Shown one piece after another: positions 2,442 to 13,817 of a stretch of 64,000 nucleotides of DNA; positions within the stretch are counted from its first letter, which is position 1, and every line of letters starts with the position of its first letter. The stretch lies in NCBI GenBank assembly GCA_002842735.1, contig PHEB01000020.1, positions 579 to 64,578 of the forward strand, read 5' to 3'. Origin of the DNA: Alphaproteobacteria bacterium HGW-Alphaproteobacteria-7. Lineage in GTDB: Bacteria; Pseudomonadota; Alphaproteobacteria; Sphingomonadales; Sphingomonadaceae. The notes under the pieces were generated by a model that was given only the letters and a program-made list of their open reading frames with translations, was not told the DNA's origin and searched no databases. Both the position numbers and the translations under genes were made by a program.

Positions 2442-3593
2442 ATGGAACATACCCAACCTGCGATGACCACCACCGATCCGCTGGACGCCAGCTTTGACAT
2501 CATTGCCCGTCAGGATCAGGCCGATGCGGCCATCACCGGCCTGCGCACCGATGTTGACGAGGTGAAAGCGCGGCTCGACAAGGTCGCCCGCGCCGCCACC
2601 CGCCCGGCGATGGGCGGCACCCCGGTAAACGACGCTCCTGAAGTCAAAGGCTTCGTCGATGGCTATCTGCGCCGTGGACGTGAAACCGAACTCAAGTCGA
2701 TCAGTGGCACCGCCCCCGGCGATGGCGGCTATGCCGTGCCGCGCCAGATCGACGCGGTGATTGCCGCTGAACTGGCTGAAATCAGCCCGATCCGCGCGAT
2801 TGCTCAGGTGGTGCAGACCGGCACCTCTGGCTATCGCAAGCTGGTTGCGACCGGCGGCACCGCGTCAGGCTGGGTCAGCGAAGCCGCCCCGCGCCCGGAA
2901 ACCGCACCCCCGCAATTTGCCGAAATCGCCCCGCCTTCGGGCGATCTCTACGCCAACCCGGCGGCGAGCCAGGGGATGCTGGATGACGCCGCTTTCGACA
3001 TCGAAACCTGGCTGGCCAGCGAGATTGCGCTGGAATTCGCGCGCGCCGAAGGAACGGCATTCGTTAACGGAACCGGCATCAACCAGCCCGAAGGCTTCCT
3101 CACCGCACCAACCGCCACTGCCGAAGACGGCGTGCGGGCATTCGGGACGATGCAATATATCGGATCGGGCAGCGCCGCCGGGTTCGACGCGGCGCCCGAT
3201 GCGCGGCTGATTGACCTGATCCACTCGCTCAAATCGGGGCACCGTCAGGGCGCGGTGTTCGTGATGAATTCGTCAACGCTGGCGACGGTACGCAAGCTCA
3301 AGACCGCCGATGGTGCGTTCCTGTGGCAGCCGGGCATGGTCGAAGGCCAGCCTGACCGCCTGCTGGGCTATCCGGTGATCGAGGCTGAGGATATGCCCGA
3401 TGTCGCAGGTGGGGCCTTCCCGATCGCGTTCGGCAATTTCCGCCACGGCTATCTGATCGCAGAAAACGGCGCGACCCGGGTGCTGCGCGATCCGTTCACC
3501 AACAAGCCCTTCGTGCACTTCTACGCCACCAAGCGGGTGGGCGGCAAAGTGCTCGATTCCAACGCGATCAAGCTGCTGAAGATCGAAGCCTAG
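2442..3593 (+). CDS. HK97-family major capsid protein (RcGTA g5-like)
   Basis: 383-aa ORF with an N-terminal scaffold-like coiled segment (ITGLRTDVDEVKARLDKV). Capsid body motifs: GDGGYAVPRQID, GTSGYRKLV, NGTGINQPEGFL, FGNFRHGYLIAE. Confidence 0.92.
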   Translation: MEHTQPAMTTTDPLDASFDIIARQDQADAAITGLRTDVDEVKARLDKVARAATRPAMGGTPVNDAPEVKGFVDGYLRRGRETELKSISGTAPGDGGYAVPRQIDAVIAAELAEISPIRAIAQVVQTGTSGYRKLVATGGTASGWVSEAAPRPETAPPQFAEIAPPSGDLYANPAASQGMLDDAAFDIETWLASEIALEFARAEGTAFVNGTGINQPEGFLTAPTATAEDGVRAFGTMQYIGSGSAAGFDAAPDARLIDLIHSLKSGHRQGAVFVMNSSTLATVRKLKTADGAFLWQPGMVEGQPDRLLGYPVIEAEDMPDVAGGAFPIAFGNFRHGYLIAENGATRVLRDPFTNKPFVHFYATKRVGGKVLDSNAIKLLKIEA

Positions 3594-4893: not shown

Positions 4894-5301
4894 ATGCCCG
4901 CCCAATCCGGCGCCGCCTTCCTGCTCAAGATCACCGATGGGGCCTCACCCCCCGCCTATCAGACCGTCGCAGGCCTTCGCACCACACAAATGTCGATCAA
5001 TGGCGACACGGTGGTCATCACCCACAAGGATTCAGGCGGGTGGCGCGACCTTTTGTCCGGCGCGGGCACCCGATCAGTGTCAGTCAGCGCTGCGGGAATC
5101 TTCCTTGGCAGTGCAGCGGAAAGCGCGGTGCGTGGCCATGCGCTGGCCGGAACGCTCGCCGATTATGAATTGTCATTCGAGGATGGCGAGCGGCTGCGCG
5201 GACGATTTCTGGTGCAACGGCTCGATTATGCCGGGGATTTCAATGGGGAGCGCAATTACACGCTCCAGCTCGAAAGCTCCGGGCCGGTCGTGCCGGCATG
5301 A
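4894..5301 (+). CDS. major tail protein, TP901-1 family (RcGTA g9-like)
   Basis: 135-aa ORF with AGGAG 8 nt upstream. GAAFLLKI...YQTVAGLRTTQMSINGDTV...FLVQRLDYAGDFNGERNYTLQLESSG. Confidence 0.85.
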   Translation: MPAQSGAAFLLKITDGASPPAYQTVAGLRTTQMSINGDTVVITHKDSGGWRDLLSGAGTRSVSVSAAGIFLGSAAESAVRGHALAGTLADYELSFEDGERLRGRFLVQRLDYAGDFNGERNYTLQLESSGPVVPA

Positions 5302-5612
5302 CCGCCGCCGCCAATCCCCTGCGCGGGGAAAGCGTGCTGATGGTGGCGGGGGTCAGCTATGTGCTGCGCCCGACCTTTGAAAGCCTAGTGCTGGCTGAAG
5401 CCGATCTGGGATCGCTGTTCGCGCTGGTCGAACGCGCGGCGGCGGGCGCGCTGACCTTGACCGAGATGACCGCGTTGCTGTGGCATTGCTTGCCGCCCGA
5501 ATCGCGGCCTGACCGTGCAGCCGTGGGTAAGGCAGTGCTGGCAATGGGGCTGGTGGCCGCCACCCAGCCGGTGCGCGCAGTGCTGGCGCAGGTGCTTCAG
5601 GGTGAGACGTGA
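5298..5612 (+). CDS. GTA tail assembly chaperone-like protein (RcGTA g10-like)
   Basis: 104-aa ORF with ATGA overlap. NPLRGESVLMVAGVSYVLRPTFESLVLAE...LTEMTALLWHCL is the conserved GTA-family pattern. Confidence 0.7.
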   Translation: MTAAANPLRGESVLMVAGVSYVLRPTFESLVLAEADLGSLFALVERAAAGALTLTEMTALLWHCLPPESRPDRAAVGKAVLAMGLVAATQPVRAVLAQVLQGET

Positions 5613-6391: not shown

Positions 6392-8713
6392 ATGGCATTC
6401 TGGCTCGCACGCGAACGCCGCGCGCAGGAAAGCAGCTTTATTCAGCGGTTCGACCCGCGGTTCTGGACGGTCAATTTCCCCCGGCCTGCGATGGCTTCGG
6501 TGGTGACGATTGCGCCTGATGCGCTGCGGGTCGAGGTTGAACTGCACCATGCGGGTGAGCTGGTCGGACTGATCTGGGACAGCGCCGATACGCTCGATCA
6601 CCCGCTACTCGCCTACGAAACCGATCGCGATTACGCGCACACCACGCTGAGCTTTCGCTGGCAGTCCGAAGGCGTGATCGCGCTCGATCTGCCCAACGGG
6701 CCAACGCTGACGATCGAAGGGCGCGATGCCGCTGGCACGCCCCGGACGTGGTTTGTAAGGCTGTGGAATTATGCGCAAGGCACGCCCACCGATGCCCGCA
6801 TAACCCTGCCGTTCTCCAATCTTCAAGCGGGATTTGGCCTGCCGGGTGAGCCTGTCCACCCAAGCGACATCGACCGCATGTTCATCTCGCTGGTCGCACC
6901 CGGCCACGTTCCTGGCAGCGCCGCGCCGCTGCCTGCGCGTTTCAATGGCGCGGTGACTGTGTCCGATATCGTCGCCGATGGTGCCCGCGCCATGCTTGAA
7001 GTCGGCGATGTGCTGCTGCCGCCGCATGGCACGAGAATCGCTACCGCCTACGACGATGCCTTCAACCAGACCCCGGCCCGCCTGCTGCGCGCGGTGACCA
7101 GTCTCGGCTATCGTCAGGATCTGATCCATTATGTCGGCATGAGCCATTTCATGCGGCTCACCCAGCAGCCGACTGGCAAGGTCAAGGTGACAACCGCAGC
7201 GGAGCTTAGTGCGCCAGCGGTTGTCTGGCACCGCAATTACTTCGAGCTAGCGCGGGCCGGAGCCTTCGAAGTCATCGCCTCGCTCTCGTATGAATTGTTC
7301 GATGCCTATTGCCCGGATGCCTGGAAGCAGCGCACCGCAAGCGGTGCCCCTGCATTAACCGGCTGGGTGCCACCATCGACCTTGCTGTCTCCGGCCAACG
7401 CGGAGGCAATGGCATGGCTGATGGACGTGGCCCGCGACTTCGTGGCGCTGCTTAGGCAGGCAGGTCTGCCGGTGCGCTTCCAGATCGGCGAGCCGTGGTG
7501 GTGGGTGACATCGGCAGGAGAAATCTGCCTGTATGATGACGCTGCAAAGGCAGCATTCGGCGGCACCCCACCGATAATCACCGATGTCGGCGGCCCGCTG
7601 ACCTTCGCGCAAACCTCGTTGCTCGATGATGCAGGCCTGCTGCTGGCACAATCGACGGCAAACCTGACCGTAACCGTTCGCGATGCCGCGCAGGGGCCGT
7701 CAGAGGTGTTGCTGCTGACATTCACGCCGACCATTCTCGATCCCGCCCGGCCCGAACTGTTTCGGGCGAACCTGCCATCCGGCTGGGCGGCACCGGCGTT
7801 CGACCGGCTGCAAATCGAAGACTACGACTGGCTCACCGGCGGAGCGGATGCGGCGCGGCGGGCGGCCTATGCCTTTGTCGATACCTGGCTCGGCTACCCG
7901 TCTGCCCTTCAGGATTATCTCGCCGGTTTCGTGCTCGATCCTGCCGATGCCGAACTTTTCTGGCTGCGGATCGACAATGGGATCGATGAAGCAGCCGAGC
8001 GCAACATCGCCCGCCGCTATGTCTGGGCGCTGCCGCAGGTCAACCGCGATGGCTACACCCGCCTCGCCCCATCCCCGGAGCAAGCCATGGATCCGTTCGA
8101 CAACGTGCTTTACCCCTTTGCGCTGGGGCGTGATGCCTCGGTCGCACCAGAATTCTCGACCTCGATTGCGGTGACCGCATCGGGGCATGAACGGCGCAAT
8201 TCACTGTGGTCGGATGCGCGGCTGCATTTTGATGTCGGCCCCGGTATCCGGTCAGAAGCGGAGTTGTCCGAGCTCGTCGCCTTCTTCCGCGCCCGGCGCG
8301 GCCCGGCCCGCGGGTTCCGCATCATGGATCCGTTCGATAACAGCTCCAACGCGATGACCCGCTCACCAACCATGTTCGATCAGTTGATCGGCATTGGCGA
8401 CGGCGCCACGGCGGATTTCCAGCTGATCAAGTCCTATGGGGCGGTCGAGCCGCAAGTGCGCCCAATCACCCGGCCTCGGCCGGAAACGCTGCTGGTCAGC
8501 ATCGGCGGCGGTGCGACCACTGGCTGGACACTGAGCGAGAAAGGCGTGCTGCGGTTCCTCGCCGCACCGCCCGCCGGGGCAGAGGTGCGAGCCGGGTTCC
8601 TGTTCGATGTTCCGGTACGGTTTGCCGAAGACCGGCTGGACGTGTCGGCGGTCAATTTTGCAGCCGGGGAGGCACCATCAATCCCGCTGATCGAACTGCG
8701 GGAGACAGCCTGA
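6392..8713 (+). CDS. fusion protein: 565-aa uncharacterised N-terminal region + DUF2460/TIGR02217 distal tail domain (RcGTA g12-like)
   Basis: Single 773-aa ORF with GGGGGA 7 nt upstream of the ATG. Residues 566-773 (FDNVLYPFALGRDASVAPEFSTSIAVTASGHERRNSLWSDARLHFDVG...FLFDVPVRF) match the g12 family. Residues 1-565 I could not assign to a named family. Confidence 0.8.
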   Translation: MAFWLARERRAQESSFIQRFDPRFWTVNFPRPAMASVVTIAPDALRVEVELHHAGELVGLIWDSADTLDHPLLAYETDRDYAHTTLSFRWQSEGVIALDLPNGPTLTIEGRDAAGTPRTWFVRLWNYAQGTPTDARITLPFSNLQAGFGLPGEPVHPSDIDRMFISLVAPGHVPGSAAPLPARFNGAVTVSDIVADGARAMLEVGDVLLPPHGTRIATAYDDAFNQTPARLLRAVTSLGYRQDLIHYVGMSHFMRLTQQPTGKVKVTTAAELSAPAVVWHRNYFELARAGAFEVIASLSYELFDAYCPDAWKQRTASGAPALTGWVPPSTLLSPANAEAMAWLMDVARDFVALLRQAGLPVRFQIGEPWWWVTSAGEICLYDDAAKAAFGGTPPIITDVGGPLTFAQTSLLDDAGLLLAQSTANLTVTVRDAAQGPSEVLLLTFTPTILDPARPELFRANLPSGWAAPAFDRLQIEDYDWLTGGADAARRAAYAFVDTWLGYPSALQDYLAGFVLDPADAELFWLRIDNGIDEAAERNIARRYVWALPQVNRDGYTRLAPSPEQAMDPFDNVLYPFALGRDASVAPEFSTSIAVTASGHERRNSLWSDARLHFDVGPGIRSEAELSELVAFFRARRGPARGFRIMDPFDNSSNAMTRSPTMFDQLIGIGDGATADFQLIKSYGAVEPQVRPITRPRPETLLVSIGGGATTGWTLSEKGVLRFLAAPPAGAEVRAGFLFDVPVRFAEDRLDVSAVNFAAGEAPSIPLIELRETA

Positions 8714-9522
8714 TGCGGGCGTTTTTCGACCGTGAGCTTGATACGGTCGCGACCTTCTGGCGCATTTATCGCCGTGATGGGGCCGCACTCGCCTTTACCA
8801 GCCACGACCGCGATCTGACCTTCGGCGGCATAACCCACCGCGCCGCGCCCGGCATGATCCCTGCCGCGATCCGCCTCACGGTTGAACTCAGCAACGACAG
8901 CGCCGAAGCACAAGGTGCGCTGCACCATGATTCGATCCGCGAAGAAGAACTTGCCGCGGGCCTGTTCGATGAAGCCGCGATCGAGATCGGCGCGGTCGAT
9001 TGGATCACGCTTGATCATTCCACGCTCTATTCTGGGCAAATTGGCCGGATCGGGGACAATCAGACTCAGTTCACCGCCGAACTGCGATCAAACAAAAGCC
9101 TGCTCGAACGCGACCTTGTTCCGCGCACCAGCCCGACCTGCCGGGCCGAGTTCTGCGGCCGGGGCTGCGGGCTTTCGGCGGTGCGTTTCACTACCTTCCG
9201 CTTGCTTGATGCGATTGACCCCGAAACGAACCGGGTGCGCTTTGGTGGCCTGATCGGGGAAAATTACGTCGACGGCAGATTGCGATTCCTGTCTGGGCCG
9301 CAGACTGGCCTGGATTTCGGTATCATCGATGCGGACGCGGACTGGCTCACACTCGATCGTCCGCTGCTGGCGGGAACCGTTACCGGCACCCGCGCTGAAC
9401 TGCGCGAAGGATGCGACCATACCTTTGCTACCTGCGCGGGCCGGTTTGCCAATAGCATCAACTTCCGCGGTGAACCGTTCCTGCCGGGCAATGATCTGCT
9501 GTCGCGTTACGGCCAACCATGA
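8713..9522 (+). CDS. DUF2163 / BR0599-type tail hub protein (RcGTA g13-like)
   Basis: 269 aa, ATG overlaps the previous stop. LDTVATFWRIYRRDGAALAFTSHDRDLTFGG, PTCRAEFCGRGCGL, CDHTFATCAGRFAN. Confidence 0.88.
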   Translation: MRAFFDRELDTVATFWRIYRRDGAALAFTSHDRDLTFGGITHRAAPGMIPAAIRLTVELSNDSAEAQGALHHDSIREEELAAGLFDEAAIEIGAVDWITLDHSTLYSGQIGRIGDNQTQFTAELRSNKSLLERDLVPRTSPTCRAEFCGRGCGLSAVRFTTFRLLDAIDPETNRVRFGGLIGENYVDGRLRFLSGPQTGLDFGIIDADADWLTLDRPLLAGTVTGTRAELREGCDHTFATCAGRFANSINFRGEPFLPGNDLLSRYGQP

Positions 9523-9953
9523 CTGGCGCGGGCGCACCAAATCCGGGCGTTGCGCTGGCCGAGGCAGCGGCAACGCTGATCGGCAGCCCGTTCCGGCTTC
9601 ACGGACGCGACCCTGCAACCGGCCTCGATTGCGTCGGGCTGGTGGTCGCAGCGCTATCCGCGACCGGAGCAACTCCGCGTGCGCCCAGCGGTTACGGCTT
9701 GCGCAACCTGTCGGTGGATCATTGGCTGCATTTTGCCGACCGATCAGGACTGGCAGCGTCGCCTGGCCCAATCCGCGCGGGCGATGTGCTGTTGATCGCG
9801 CTCAGCCATTGCCAGCATCATCTGGCCATCGCCGCGAGCGCGGCCAGCATCATTCATGCCCATGCCGGGCTGCGACAAGTGGTGCGACAACCGCTTGATC
9901 CCGCTTGGCGGCTCCACATCAAGTGGCACGTCGCACAACAAATGGAAGGCTGA
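9519..9953 (+). CDS. NlpC/P60-family cell-wall peptidase (RcGTA g14-like)
   Basis: 144 aa with ATGA overlap. LIGSPFRLHGRDPATGLDCVGLV (catalytic Cys context) and HLAIA...IIHAHAG (His). Confidence 0.85.
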   Translation: MTGAGAPNPGVALAEAAATLIGSPFRLHGRDPATGLDCVGLVVAALSATGATPRAPSGYGLRNLSVDHWLHFADRSGLAASPGPIRAGDVLLIALSHCQHHLAIAASAASIIHAHAGLRQVVRQPLDPAWRLHIKWHVAQQMEG

Positions 9954-9957
9954 TTTC

Positions 9958-12034
9958 ATGGCAACATTGGTGCTTACAGCCATCGGCACCGCCGTTGGTG
10001 GGCCGATTGGCGGAGCGATTGGCGCGTTGGTCGGTCAGCAGGTCGATGGGCTCATTTTCGGCGGCGGCACCCGCCAAGGGCCTCGTCTGCGCGAAGTGAC
10101 GATCAGCACGTCGAGCTATGGCCAGCCAATCGCGCGCCACTTCGGGCGGATGCGGGTGCCCGGTTCGGTGATCTGGTCGACCGACCTGATTGAAAACAGA
10201 CGCAAGGAAAAGGGGCGCAAGGGCCAGCCATCGACTGTCACCTTCTCCTACACAGCCTCCTTCGCGGTCGCATTGTCCAGCACCCCGATTGCGCGGCTCG
10301 GGCGGGTCTGGGCCGATGGCAACCTGCTGCGCGGAAGCCTTGGCGACCTCAAGGTAGGCGGGAGCCTGCGCATCTACTGTGGCCACGGCGACGACCCGGT
10401 TGATCCCCTGATCGCTGCCGCCAAAAGCGGTCAGGCACCAGCCTTCCGGGACTGTGCCTATGTGGTGTTCGAAGATCTTGAACTGGGAGATTTTGGCAAC
10501 CGCATCCCGGCGCTCAGCTTCGAAATCTTCGCCGAAGGGGGCGATGACACTGTCTCCCTGGAACGGTTGGTGCCTGGGGCGGTTCCGGCTGCGACGCCGG
10601 TCATGCTGGCCCATGCCCGGGGCTTTGCCGATGAAGGCGGACCGCTTGCCGCAAGTTTGGCAGCGATTGATCAGGTCATCCCGCTGATCTGCACATCAGG
10701 CAAAGATGGCCCGATCATTGCCGACCCAGGAACCGGCGGCCCTGCGCTATTACGACGAAGATCGCGATTACCAGCCGGGCGTGCAGCGCGCGATTGGCAC
10801 GCGGCAGGTGGGCCGCGAATTGATGGTTGATCTGCCCGCCACCATGAACGCGAGCGGAGCGCGGCAGCTGGCCAATGACAGTGCGAATCGTGCACGCTGG
10901 CAGCACGAAACGGTGCTTTGGCGCACCAGCGAAATCGACCCGCGCCTATTCCCCGGCACCATCGTGCGCATTCCCGATGCTCCCGGATACTGGTTGTTGC
11001 GCAGTTGGGAATGGCTCGACCGCGGGATTGAGCTCGAACTGGAAAGGCTCGCGCCCGGCCTTACAACGGCCCGCATCAGCGATCCCGGCGAACCCTTGCC
11101 GCCGTCAGATCTGGTGATCCCGGATACGAGGTTGGCCGCAATAGAAGTTCCGGCAGACGGCAATGCCAATCCCGCTGCATCTCTGATTTTCGCAGTCGTT
11201 TCGGCCGAAAACAATGCTTGGCGCGGCGCGGCGCTGTTTGCCGTTCAAGGCACAGCGATGGTCGATCTGGGCACCAGCGGATCGCAGCGCGCCATTATTG
11301 GCACACTTTTTGAACCCCTGCCCCCTTCGCGGGCTTTGCTGTTCGAGCCGGAAGCCAAGGCCGTAATCGAACTCGTCGCAGACGACATCGCTTTAACCGA
11401 AACTAGCATTGATGGCCTTGCCGCAGGAGCCAACCGTTTGCTGGTCGGCAGCGAGGTCATCCAGTTTGTGCGGGCCGCCCCCTTGGGCAACCGCCGGTGG
11501 GAATTGTCTGGATTGCTTCGCGGACGCGGCGGCACCGAACACAGCGCGGCGCAGGGCCATCCTGCGCAGACCCTTGCCGTCCTGCTCGATGACAGTCTGG
11601 TAGCGCTCGATCAGGAGCTTGTTCCACCGCTGCCGACCACGCGAATCGCGGCAATCGGGAGAGGCGATAGCGAAGCGGTGCTCGCCCCGCTCGTCAATCC
11701 CGGTCTCTCGCGCCGCCCACCGTGCCCGGTTCACCCGCGTCAACGGATCGATCCGGACCAGAGCCGGCATTTCAGCTGGACCCGGCGTGCACGCGGGCAA
11801 TGGCGCTGGGACAATGCGGTCGAGGTGCCACTGGTCGAAGAACGCGAACTTTATCAAATCGGCTACGGCCCGACCGCCGCGCCGCACGTCACATGGACGC
11901 GCAGCGAACCGCAGCTGTCGCTGACTCAGCCAGAAATTGCGAGCCTGCGGGACACGCACGGCAATGCCGATCTGTGGGTCATGCAGGTCGGAACATTCGA
12001 CCGCTCACCAGCGCTGTTGCTCGCATTGATTTAA
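9958..12034 (+). pseudogene. GTA host-specificity/baseplate protein (RcGTA g15-like), reading frame broken near 10720-10745
   Basis: The N-terminal part (MATLVLTAIGTAVGGPIGGAIGALVG...FEDLELGDFGNRIPALSFEI) is in frame 1 (track ORF 9856..10830). It continues (LRYYDEDRDYQPGVQRA...IVRIPDAPGYWLLRSWEW...) in frame 2 (track ORF 10706..12034). After about 10745, frame 1 uses rare codons (cta tta cga cga aga). Confidence 0.8.
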
Positions 12035-12680: not shown

Positions 12681-13817
12681 ATGCGCAAACTCGTCATTGG
12701 AATGGCGATGGCTTCGACCGCGCTGACAACGCCTGCCATGGCCCGCGACGGCCAATGGTACATTCAGGGCGACGGCGGCGTCATGATCGTCGAAGACCAG
12801 AATGTGGATGTCAACGGCGTCGCCAACGATGCCTCGGCTGCTTACGACACCGGTTTTGATTTCGGTGCGGCAGTTGGCCACGACTTTGGTGCCTTCCGCC
12901 TCGAAGCCGAAACCAGCTATCGTGCTGCTATCGATCCCGATTTTGTTGTCGGCGGTAGTCAAGGTCTCGTCCTTAACCCTCCCAACACCAACACCTTCAG
13001 TGGTCAGCGAAGCGCGTTCGGCGAACTGAACGCCCTGAGCTTCATGCTGAATGCTCTGTTCGATTTCGGTGACGATGACGGCATTCAAGCATTCGCTGGT
13101 GGCGGTGTCGGCATTGCTCGCGTCGACATGGACGCCAGCGTTGACGACCGCGGTCCGGGAGTTTGGAACGATTCCGACACTGGTTTTGCTTGGCAGATTC
13201 TTGCCGGGGTTCGTGCTCCGATCAGCAAGGCGTTGGATGTCGGCCTGAAGTACCGTTACTTCAATGTACCCGAAGTTAATCTGGTCGATGGGCTAGGGCG
13301 GTCGCTTGAAGCTGATTTCAACTCGCACTCGTTGATGGGTTCGATCACCTATAACTTTGGTGGTGAAGAACCTGTTGTGGCACCGGTGGCACCGCCGCCT
13401 CCGCCTCCACCACCACCACCGCCACCACCGCCGCCACCTCCGCCGCCGCCACCTCCGCCGGTGCCGTGCAACACGGGTCCGTACATCGTGTTCTTCGACT
13501 TTGATAAGTCGGACATCACGGCTGAGGCTGCGACCATCCTCAACAGCGCCGTCACTGCCTACGCCAATTGTGGTTCGGCAAACGTGATGTTGGCGGGTCA
13601 CACTGACCGTGCGGGTAGCGTCAAGTACAACATCGGCTTGGCTGAACGCCGTAACGCATCGGTTCGCAGCTACCTGAACGGTCGCGGCATCCCTGATGGC
13701 CGCATTACAGGTGAAGCGTTTGGCGAATCTCAGCCGCGCGTCCCGACCGCCGACGGTGTTCGCGAAGCGCAGAACCGCCGCGTGGAAGTGACCTATGGTC
13801 CGGGTTCGGGCATGTAA
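12681..13817 (+). CDS. OmpA-family outer-membrane protein: N-terminal beta-barrel, polyproline hinge, C-terminal OmpA peptidoglycan-binding domain
   Basis: Signal peptide MRKLVIGMAMASTALTTPAMA. C-terminal motifs: FFDFDKSDIT, LAGHTDRAGSVKYNIGLAERRNASV, NRRVEV. Confidence 0.88.
   Translation: MRKLVIGMAMASTALTTPAMARDGQWYIQGDGGVMIVEDQNVDVNGVANDASAAYDTGFDFGAAVGHDFGAFRLEAETSYRAAIDPDFVVGGSQGLVLNPPNTNTFSGQRSAFGELNALSFMLNALFDFGDDDGIQAFAGGGVGIARVDMDASVDDRGPGVWNDSDTGFAWQILAGVRAPISKALDVGLKYRYFNVPEVNLVDGLGRSLEADFNSHSLMGSITYNFGGEEPVVAPVAPPPPPPPPPPPPPPPPPPPPPPPVPCNTGPYIVFFDFDKSDITAEAATILNSAVTAYANCGSANVMLAGHTDRAGSVKYNIGLAERRNASVRSYLNGRGIPDGRITGEAFGESQPRVPTADGVREAQNRRVEVTYGPGSGM
13392..13460 (+). repeat. 23 consecutive proline codons (CCN)23 inside the OmpA-family gene
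   Basis: Hand parse of codons 13392-13460: a mixture of ccg/cct/cca, in frame with ATG 12681. Confidence 0.95.

Follow-up and report, generated by a model that had tools for sequence, protein, structure and literature searches.

Why should the gene for the distal tail protein (Dit) of a gene transfer agent (GTA) encode 565 residues ahead of the Dit domain itself? The question is raised by gene g12 of an RcGTA-type cluster found in a 64,000-nucleotide stretch of the assembly of Alphaproteobacteria bacterium HGW-Alphaproteobacteria-7 (Sphingomonadaceae; GCA_002842735.1, contig PHEB01000020.1, positions 579 to 64,578), hereafter the window, where g12 is an uninterrupted open reading frame (ORF) of 773 residues with an ATG start. 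In the Alphaproteobacteria, much gene exchange runs through GTAs under host control, and their choice of recipients is poorly understood outside Rhodobacter. The results presented here suggest that Sphingomonadales build a differently organized GTA baseplate, in which the TIM barrel of the megatron, the product of g15, is gone and an unrelated glycoside hydrolase (GH)-like module, of the type found in the tail sheath of phage N4, is carried on the Dit.

Identity and fold of the g12 N-terminal region

The boundaries of the Dit domain were determined from profile searches and from comparison with RcGTA. DUF2460 (PF09343) covers residues 571-770 of g12 (E 2.5e-69, 233 bits versus a cutoff of 30.4) and TIGR02217 covers residues 569-770 (185.7 bits versus a cutoff of 136.65), matching positions 2-209 of the 210 in the model, while the RcGTA Dit Rcc01695 (PDB 6tba) aligns to residues 569-770 with E 2e-42. 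As the preliminary description, made from the sequence alone, had stated, the Dit domain is confined to the C-terminus of the ORF, and the size of about 200 residues given there for RcGTA-type Dits agrees with that of the stand-alone homologs (210 residues in RcGTA, 214 in phage R4C, 208 in phage RcKvothe and 208 in prophage L174). At 773 residues, g12 departs from the single-domain form of about 210 residues that is typical of RcGTA-type Dits.

Residues 1-565 had been described as uncharacterized, which turned out not to be the case, as they are covered by two curated Pfam families and by solved structures of phage N4. Both families belong to the non-contractile tail sheath protein (NCTSP): NCTSP_N (PF23844) matches with 304.9 bits and TIM-barrel_NCTSP (PF23845) with 533 bits, versus a cutoff of 27, and their N-to-C order is preserved. 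In pairwise comparisons, residues 12-92 match residues 51-131 of N4 gp65 (1382 residues; E 2.6e-14) and residues 269-560 match N4 gp64 (417 residues; E 1e-43). In the N4 tail, six gp64-gp65 heterodimers make up the non-contractile sheath, and gp65 is the receptor-binding protein (PMC13434306). An AlphaFold2 model of the module, computed from a 35-sequence alignment (pLDDT 94.8, pTM 0.94), consists of an all-beta domain at about residues 1-205 (pLDDT >90) followed by an alternating beta/alpha barrel at about residues 215-557. A Foldseek search of the PDB with this model returned N4 gp64 first (E 2e-24, rmsd 2.8 Å) and the N-terminal ~600 residues of N4 gp65 second (E 2e-20), followed by GH31 enzymes, the C-terminal GH153 domain of PgaB/BpsB and GH35 beta-galactosidases (E 2e-8 to 5e-6). 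Target TM scores were 0.54-0.61 for PgaB/BpsB entries holding the C-terminal domain only, 0.38-0.39 for the longer PgaB 42-655 entries and 0.32-0.40 for GH35-type beta-galactosidases. The predicted module hence has the fold of the solved N4 gp64 and gp65 and, at the level of fold, that of a GH-type (beta/alpha)8 barrel, in line with the earlier guess of a TIM-barrel-like, carbohydrate-active module.

The motifs FQIGEPWWWV and LQIEDYDWL, on which that guess had drawn, are both present and contain the positions that vary least within the family. In the 35-sequence alignment, which reaches down to 28% identity, E301, Q364, G366, E367, W370, W371, E476, Y478 and D553 are invariant, and E301, E367 and E476 lie in or immediately beside predicted barrel strands, as placed by the model and the alignment rather than by residue-wise alignment to a known GH active site. 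This invariant cluster of acidic and aromatic residues is a candidate sugar-binding or active site, and the inferred role of the module is to bind a polysaccharide on the recipient cell surface and possibly to cleave or modify it. Maffei et al. aligned N4 Gp64 with the conserved lateral fibre protein of the Vequintavirinae, the shared domain being a poly-GlcNAc deacetylase as predicted by Phyre2 (PMC8594841 S5F), and the domain common to the two proteins has been tied to dependence on WecB-derived (ECA/NGR) glycans (PMC8594841, PMC8669472). The published deacetylase label probably reflects the C-terminal GH153 domain of PgaB and not its CE4 deacetylase domain, because the structures matched by Foldseek contain the hydrolase domain only (4p7n, 4p7o, 4p7q, 6au1).

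Three invariant Glu, one invariant Asp and several Trp and Tyr residues in or beside predicted barrel strands constitute a classic sugar- or active-site signature, and the pattern is kept across fibres, hub-like fusions and stand-alone proteins. Together with the observations that the nearest folds outside phages all belong to glycoside hydrolases and that phages with the domain share the glycan dependence mentioned above, this argues against a purely architectural role, in which the module would be a sheath or collar stabilizing the baseplate or tail tip and the conserved residues would serve folding or protein contacts. We judge such a role unlikely, although in N4 the homologous parts do sit in a structural sheath, whose receptor contacts have been placed in the distal domains D9-D10 of gp65 and in NfrA (PMC13434306), and although activity within the TIM-barrel_NCTSP family is so far a prediction.

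Distribution of the fusion and of the megatron barrel

The distribution of the fusion was assessed in protein and genome collections. The best 120 database proteins matching g12 are 78-97% identical to it, have lengths of 767-775 residues (two partial sequences apart) and carry all three domains; they come from Porphyrobacter, Erythrobacter and Erythromicrobium and are named only as 'DUF2460 domain-containing' or 'TIGR02217 family' proteins. When a 48%-identical Thermaurantiacus copy was used as query, the best 120 matches again all had the three domains and included Sandaracinobacter, Sandarakinorhabdus and Polymorphobacter (Sphingosinicellaceae). The genome scan used one genome per GTDB species, and the best 80 of at least 592 genomes with a relative were examined. 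In these, residues 1-771 of 773 are covered at 61-96% identity, except in two copies truncated by contig ends, and the genera represented are Porphyrobacter, Erythrobacter, Qipengyuania, Pelagerythrobacter, Pontixanthobacter, Altererythrobacter, Croceibacterium, Citromicrobium and Novosphingobium, the closest genome among the matches listed being Porphyrobacter sp. MBR-155 (96% identity). Overall, the fusion was found in 240/240 best proteins, 80/80 best species genomes and 80/80 IMG/VR contigs, and no stop codon at the junction was seen in any locus examined. The comparative data point to an old lineage trait shared by much of the Sphingomonadales, as sampled in Erythrobacteraceae, Novosphingobium and Sphingosinicellaceae.

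The same survey settles a concern raised in the preliminary description, namely that related clusters might have a stop codon or separate genes at the junction, or that an assembly error had joined them: the fusion is uninterrupted in all 160 related loci as well as in the 240 best proteins. With the same architecture and a length of 771-790 residues recurring in hundreds of independent assemblies and isolates, the comparative data refute an origin of the long ORF in an assembly or annotation error or in a recent private phage insertion, to which we assign a negligible probability; a private lesion does lie nearby, in g15 (see below), but base composition is uniform and the flanking host genes are syntenic in relatives. 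GC content at third codon positions (GC3) is 0.727 for residues 1-565 and 0.742 for the Dit part, versus a mean of 0.735 ± 0.046 over 25 further long ORFs in the window, which bears out the host-like, GC3-rich codon usage noted earlier. The cluster is flanked by PP-binding and aminotransferase genes upstream and by MFS, QueC and Hsp33 genes downstream, as in loci L001 and L004 at 80-95% identity. With conserved host flanks, host-like GC3 and no phage replication or integration genes, it has the properties of a chromosomal, vertically inherited cluster.

The IMG/VR 'viral' contigs bearing the fusion (L086-L165) are 4-17 kb long, the size of a GTA cluster, and are fragments of Sphingomonadales-type GTA clusters rather than phage genomes. 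The same is true of a 'Bacteriophage sp.' record of 5.4 kb obtained from human faeces (GenBank MT840053.1). These fragments have the fused g12 and a short g15, and GTA clusters are in this way filed as viruses in IMG/VR and GenBank.

The second question concerns g15, which the preliminary description had reported as only about half as long as in Rhodobacter. RcGTA g15 has 1304 residues, of which residues 230-744, the stretch missing here, form the 'peripheral' domain (PMC7296036). This domain is a TIM barrel whose function is unknown and which touches the detachable tailspike TspA; the docking sites of TspA are the OB domain of the Dit and the peripheral domain itself, and TspA is reported to be missing outside Rhodobacterales (bioRxiv 10.64898/2026.07.19.739414). 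Intact relatives of the window have a single g15 of 703-735 residues with Phage-tail_3 and Rcc01698_C domains and without GTA_TIM, and in the best 80 loci g15 is of about 725 residues wherever it is reached (two contigs end earlier, two cut g15 and L035 has it split), which agrees with the reported half length. No GTA_TIM-like sequence was detected within ±10 kb of the fused g12 in any of these 80 loci. The clusters of Polymorphobacter, Thermaurantiacus and Sandaracinobacter likewise combine a fused g12 with a short g15 without GTA_TIM, and an unfused Dit of about 208 residues accompanies a GTA_TIM megatron in RcGTA, phages R4C and RcKvothe and prophage L174. In the window, the NCBIfam megatron model NF048004 (1299 positions) is matched only at positions 1-216 and 859-1286, and a further lesion, the loss of 104 bp between positions 10720 and 10721, breaks g15 into two overlapping ORFs that are not in the same frame; it was defined by comparison with L004 (g12 95% identical; intact g15 of 726 residues) and Porphyrobacter HT-58-2 (727 residues). 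L035 is the one other species genome with a split g15. The window copy is possibly a pseudogene or the result of an assembly error.

It had been proposed that a glycan-binding or hydrolase module sits on g12 here instead of on g15. As regards placement, the proposal is upheld by the 80 best loci and the three Sphingosinicellaceae clusters; as regards identity with the g15 domain, it fails. The GTA_TIM family (PF13547), suggested earlier for the g12 region, gave no match to g12 at E ≤ 0.01, BLASTP of g12 against the 1319-residue megatron returned nothing (E ≥ 1), hhalign of the 35-sequence NCTSP profile against a 23-sequence GTA_TIM profile assigned a probability of 0.2% (E 0.3), and megatron structures were absent among the top 50 Foldseek matches of the module, which moreover has a wide phage distribution of its own. 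A literal transfer of the megatron GTA_TIM domain from g15 to g12 is therefore highly improbable, despite the near balance of lengths (+565 residues on g12 versus about -580 on g15) and the location at the baseplate periphery that the two TIM barrels would share. Since the two barrels have no detectable homology, the change in g12 and g15 is better read as a replacement by a different TIM-barrel family than as a relocation. The clusters compared suggest that each baseplate has one peripheral TIM barrel, of either family, carried by a varying baseplate protein.

GTA_TIM was also observed fused to hub domains (PF09356/PF09931) in proteins of about 835-852 residues (P0323-P0335, P0389). On phage contig L175 (7001-9508), such a GTA_TIM-hub fusion occurs together with a short Phage-tail_3 protein of 651 residues, and would represent a second example of a peripheral TIM barrel moving between baseplate proteins.

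The Met566 start signal and a proposed composition of the Dit ring

Met566 of g12 aligns with the initiator Met of unfused Rcc01695 (RcGTA 'M.FHEVRFP' versus 'MDPFDNVLYPF'). To survey internal starts, 148 unique fusion genes were aligned and every column was scored for start codons and for a Shine-Dalgarno (SD)-like motif 4-17 nt upstream. Column 566 has ATG or GTG in 99.3% of the genes and an SD-like motif in 96%, and the only other column combining both signals in most sequences is the annotated start (99% and 84%, respectively). The mean background frequency of SD-like motifs is 7.7% per column, and such motifs occur at 0-17% in the six further columns in which 80% or more of the sequences have a start-capable codon. 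Val stands at column 566 in 24 genes and is encoded by GTG in every one of them, versus 44% GTG among their Val codons. Genes of Polymorphobacter, Thermaurantiacus and Sandaracinobacter, at about 50% identity, have the unrelated linkers EIIGEDS, GSLEEEA and PAPGAEDV, and these Sphingosinicellaceae genes nevertheless keep an ATG after GAGG, GAGGAGG or GGAGG. On the strength of this conservation, the gene probably yields both a long Dit of 773 residues and a short Dit of 208 residues from the internal start.

Were only the long form made, the SD-like motif and ATG at Met566 would be a relic of a time when the module gene and g12 were separate, or a by-product of the acidic linker, and the six modules borne by each Dit ring would surround the tail tip as a six-fold collar like that of N4. 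A relic should decay, yet 99% of the 148 genes keep the start codon and 96% the SD-like motif while linker amino acids vary; the signal persists between families at about 50% identity, Met is replaced always by a Val encoded by GTG, and no other column, the six start-capable ones included, has an SD frequency above 17%. On the other hand, the N4 sheath is six-fold around the tube (PMC13434306), a fusion through stop-codon loss would leave exactly such a relic, the linkers are rich in Glu, Asp and Gly, which favours purine-rich DNA, and a flexible linker might fit six modules despite the three-fold baseplate. We consider exclusive production of the long form rather unlikely, if somewhat less so than a purely architectural module.

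The reading that we favour, and hold to be somewhat more probable than its alternatives taken together, is that g12 encodes a 'decorated' Dit of an RcGTA-type GTA, combining an N4-sheath module, a peripheral baseplate position, a glycan-related role and two products. The canonical Dit (residues ~566-773) would make up the final ring of the tail tube, with the 565-residue module, a beta-sandwich followed by a GH-like TIM barrel, hanging on it via the short flexible linker. The Dit-borne module would most likely occupy the baseplate periphery, because the megatron of the same clusters has no peripheral TIM barrel. There it would recognize, and perhaps depolymerize or modify, the surface polysaccharide of the recipient, as a built-in counterpart of the RcGTA peripheral TIM barrel and detachable tailspike; in Sphingomonadales, it would substitute for the peripheral barrel of the megatron and perhaps for TspA. 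The module is in this respect a concrete candidate for recipient recognition or capsule processing in lineages without TspA.

Long and short Dits would co-assemble, so that the hexameric ring mixes decorated and plain subunits, accommodates the bulky module and still docks on the three-fold complex of hub and megatron. In RcGTA, the Dit touches both hub and megatron with its N-terminus (Ala2), and its odd and even subunits take up different conformations that bridge six-fold and three-fold symmetry (PMC7296036). A specific form of co-assembly, for instance an alternating 3+3 arrangement of the two isoforms that matches the three-fold baseplate and restores three peripheral TIM barrels per particle, is a tentative proposal, to which we give slightly less than an even chance. 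If true, a six-fold/three-fold symmetry mismatch would be resolved in a manner not described before, and an N4-sheath-type glycan-processing module would have been grafted onto a siphophage-like GTA tail across a whole bacterial order. The putative nested internal start offers a testable case of decorated and plain ring subunits.

Several considerations weigh against this reading. The internal start is deduced from sequence conservation; the 148 genes are phylogenetically related, and naive statistics overstate their independence, while acidic linkers favour GAG/GGA-rich DNA and bias composition towards SD-like motifs. The full-length AlphaFold model has a disordered linker and no confident or fixed interface between module and Dit, the position in the particle being deduced from other evidence. 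The predicted GH-like barrel matches glycoside hydrolases at only 9-14% sequence identity, and glycan binding or catalysis in the TIM-barrel_NCTSP family, N4 gp64 and gp65 included, is a prediction. The functional replacement of the megatron peripheral domain is argued from complementary distribution solely. Carriers in Sphingomonas, Sphingobium and Zymomonas and outside the Sphingomonadales fall beyond the best-80 sample, and the GTA cluster of the window, with its frameshifted g15, may itself be nonfunctional.

Gene cluster, wider occurrence and known systems

The features of the g12 locus are compiled in the following table. In the window, g12 directly follows the tape-measure gene and abuts the hub gene at position 8713, and the order g11-g12-g13 is also found in L001, L004 and L168-L170. 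Gene order from g2 to g15 is collinear with RcGTA and includes RcGTA-specific families (megatron, hub, Dit, g10), identifying an RcGTA-type head-tail cluster.

Table. Coordinates, in the window, of g12, its domains and signals, and neighbouring genes of the cluster.
Feature	Position	Strand	Basis
Capsid gene	2442-3593		Pfam/NCBIfam scans
Tail tube gene	4894-5301		Pfam/NCBIfam scans
g10	5298-5612		Pfam/NCBIfam scans
g11, tape measure, 191 residues	5802..6377	+	Weak RcGTA_tape match, phrog_30701, tape-measure PHROGs, cluster position
g12, fused gene (N4-sheath-type module and RcGTA-type Dit)	6392..8713	+	ORF, translation, three Pfam domains; same architecture in all best homologs
NCTSP_N domain, all-beta sandwich	6440..7006 (residues 17-205)	+	PF23844, E 1.9e-91
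TIM-barrel_NCTSP, GH-like (beta/alpha)8 barrel	7019..8056 (residues 210-555)	+	PF23845, E 3.9e-160
Linker, short, sequence-variable, predicted flexible	8057..8086	+	pLDDT <50 at residues 561-567 in the full-length model
GGAG, SD-like motif 6 nt upstream of the internal ATG	8077..8080	+	SD-like motif in 96% of 148 genes
Putative nested short product, Dit alone, 208 residues, from Met566	8087..8713	+	Start codon ATG 8087-8089; DUF2460 residues 571-770
g13, baseplate hub	8713..9522	+	PF09931 and PF09356; TIGR02218 E 1.8e-50
g14, NlpC/P60 peptidase	9519..9953	+	PF00877; TIGR02219
g15 N-terminal fragment (iris and adhesin-like domains)	9958..10830	+	NF048004 positions 1-216; tblastn versus intact relatives of 726/727 residues; out of frame after 10720
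g15 C-terminal fragment (Phage-tail_3 and Rcc01698_C fibre-binding)	10706..12034	+	NF048004 positions 859-1286; PF13550 and PF23666; no GTA_TIM

Two further genes were noted in these clusters. At the cluster end, a gene of about 375-392 codons lies right after the DUF2793 gene in both Erythrobacteraceae and Sphingosinicellaceae (window 12681-13817; L168 15442-16620; L169 15395-16567; L170 15317-16477; L001 16388-17527), and the copies in the window and L168 encode OmpA-family beta-barrel outer-membrane domains (OMP_b-brl and OmpA). The synteny of this OmpA-type gene in two families suggests a functional tie to the GTA, possibly as an envelope component or receptor. In the Sphingosinicellaceae clusters, an ORF of 911-936 residues without a Pfam match lies between the capsid and head-tail connector genes (L168 2283-5018, L169 2705-5509, L170 2774-5584), and is absent from the cluster of the window.

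The module extends well beyond GTAs. A search of 1.84 billion cluster representatives identified 601 clusters at E ≤ 1e-3 and 248 at E ≤ 1e-30, with architectures that comprise stand-alone proteins of about 560-615 residues, the module with other domains of about 200 residues, the module after Phage-tail_3, a central module in long fibre-like proteins, the module with a glycine-rich domain, and the module with DUF2460. This variety suggests that the module is mobile between protein contexts. Annotated phage proteins with the module are phi92 gp142, which is not mentioned in the phi92 structure paper, rV5-like 'tail fibre' proteins, N4-like gp64 and proteins of Loki-like siphophages of Acinetobacter and Pseudomonas, linking GTA baseplates to N4-like podophages, rV5/phi92-like myophages and Loki-like siphophages. 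In siphophages vB_AbaS_D0 (L003 5346-8661) and Pavpe01 (L166 5341-8742), the module gene comes immediately after the Dit gene. The encoded proteins, of 903-927 residues, are annotated as 'putative capsid and scaffold protein', probably in error, because the gene lies in the tail module directly after the Dit gene.

An ancestral two-gene order, with the module gene preceding the Dit gene, was not found around the stand-alone module proteins P0125 and P0136, whose neighbours are head-tail adaptor and fibre-like genes and not a Dit gene. Three proteins considered as megatrons were rejected: P0144 and P0148, with the module at residues ~230-790, where a megatron would have its peripheral domain, are fibre-like proteins with unrelated ends according to Pfam and NCBIfam, and P0272 (Sphingomonas) has no match to a megatron HMM. 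A 37-kb phage-like contig (L173 8001-11018; JGI 3300078837) encodes a 1005-residue protein, P0124, which has the NCTSP module at its N-terminus and occupies the Dit position, between a 1325-residue tape measure and a g13-like hub. Its identification as a Dit was not confirmed, as its C-terminal 460 residues match phrog_1082 ('tail assembly protein') and not DUF2460, with only motif-level likeness to the Dit N-terminus (BLASTP E 2.9); P0124 may nonetheless be a phage counterpart of the g12 fusion.

The domain architecture of g12 is visible in public annotation through precomputed Pfam matches. Kogay 2020 gave the length difference of g12 and g15 only as a technical remark, and the mismatch in Sphingomonadales has so far been handled only by alignment trimming (PMC7360931). 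Our literature search returned no account of the identity of the extra g12 sequence, its kinship with the N4 sheath, the complementary loss in g15 or the internal start. New here are the Met566 start signal and the 104-bp g15 deletion of the window, and the combination as a whole is a variant of known parts. In comparative work, Sphingomonadales g12 and g15 are not length-equivalent to the Rhodobacter references.

Among known systems, N4 gp65 and gp64 (PDB 9lc0, 9yf4, 9yf5; PF23844/PF23845) share with g12 the two-domain module and the FQIGEPWWW and QIEDYDW motifs, the module being the N-terminus of gp65 and the TIM barrel most of the small subunit gp64. A virion location at the tail periphery is plausible for the g12 module. 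N4, however, is a podophage, in which the module is the N-terminal part of a ten-domain gp65 paired with gp64 around the tube, whereas g12 has a single module copy on a siphophage-type Dit, without the distal gp65 domains; a gp64-like partner (a second PF23845 gene) was not found among the called genes of the cluster, which sets it apart from an N4-type sheath. RcGTA Rcc01695 (g12; PDB 6tba/6teh) and the R4C Dit (8gtc) match the C-terminal 208 residues of g12 over their full length, including the insertion/OB region, and Rcc01695 occupies the same gene slot between tape measure and hub. These Dits are unfused, whereas the Dit of g12 comes after 565 other residues, and its ancestral start would persist as an internal start signal. 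The peripheral domain of the RcGTA megatron Rcc01698 (g15) is also a TIM barrel that protrudes from an RcGTA-type baseplate and is also modular, but it belongs to another Pfam family and has a trimeric carrier (three copies), whereas the g12 module is carried by the hexameric Dit.

The 'evolved' Dits of Gram-positive siphophages, such as Lactobacillus phage J-1 and lactococcal phages, bear carbohydrate-binding modules (CBMs) inserted in their C-terminal galectin-like domain. The concept is the same, with the Dit ring as a platform for carbohydrate-recognizing domains, but the additions there are small internal CBMs, whereas g12 has a large GH-like TIM-barrel module at the N-terminus of a Gram-negative GTA-type Dit. 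PgaB/BpsB GH153 and the GH31 and GH35 enzymes share the (beta/alpha)8 fold of the module (Foldseek E 1e-8 to 1e-6), and GH31 enzymes also share its order of beta-sandwich, then barrel. The tail tube of phage SPP1 (gp17.1/gp17.1*) is built from plain and decorated forms encoded by one gene, a frameshift adding a C-terminal domain to the latter. In SPP1 the difference arises from a frameshift and an added C-terminal domain, whereas for g12 it would arise from internal initiation that omits the N-terminal module.

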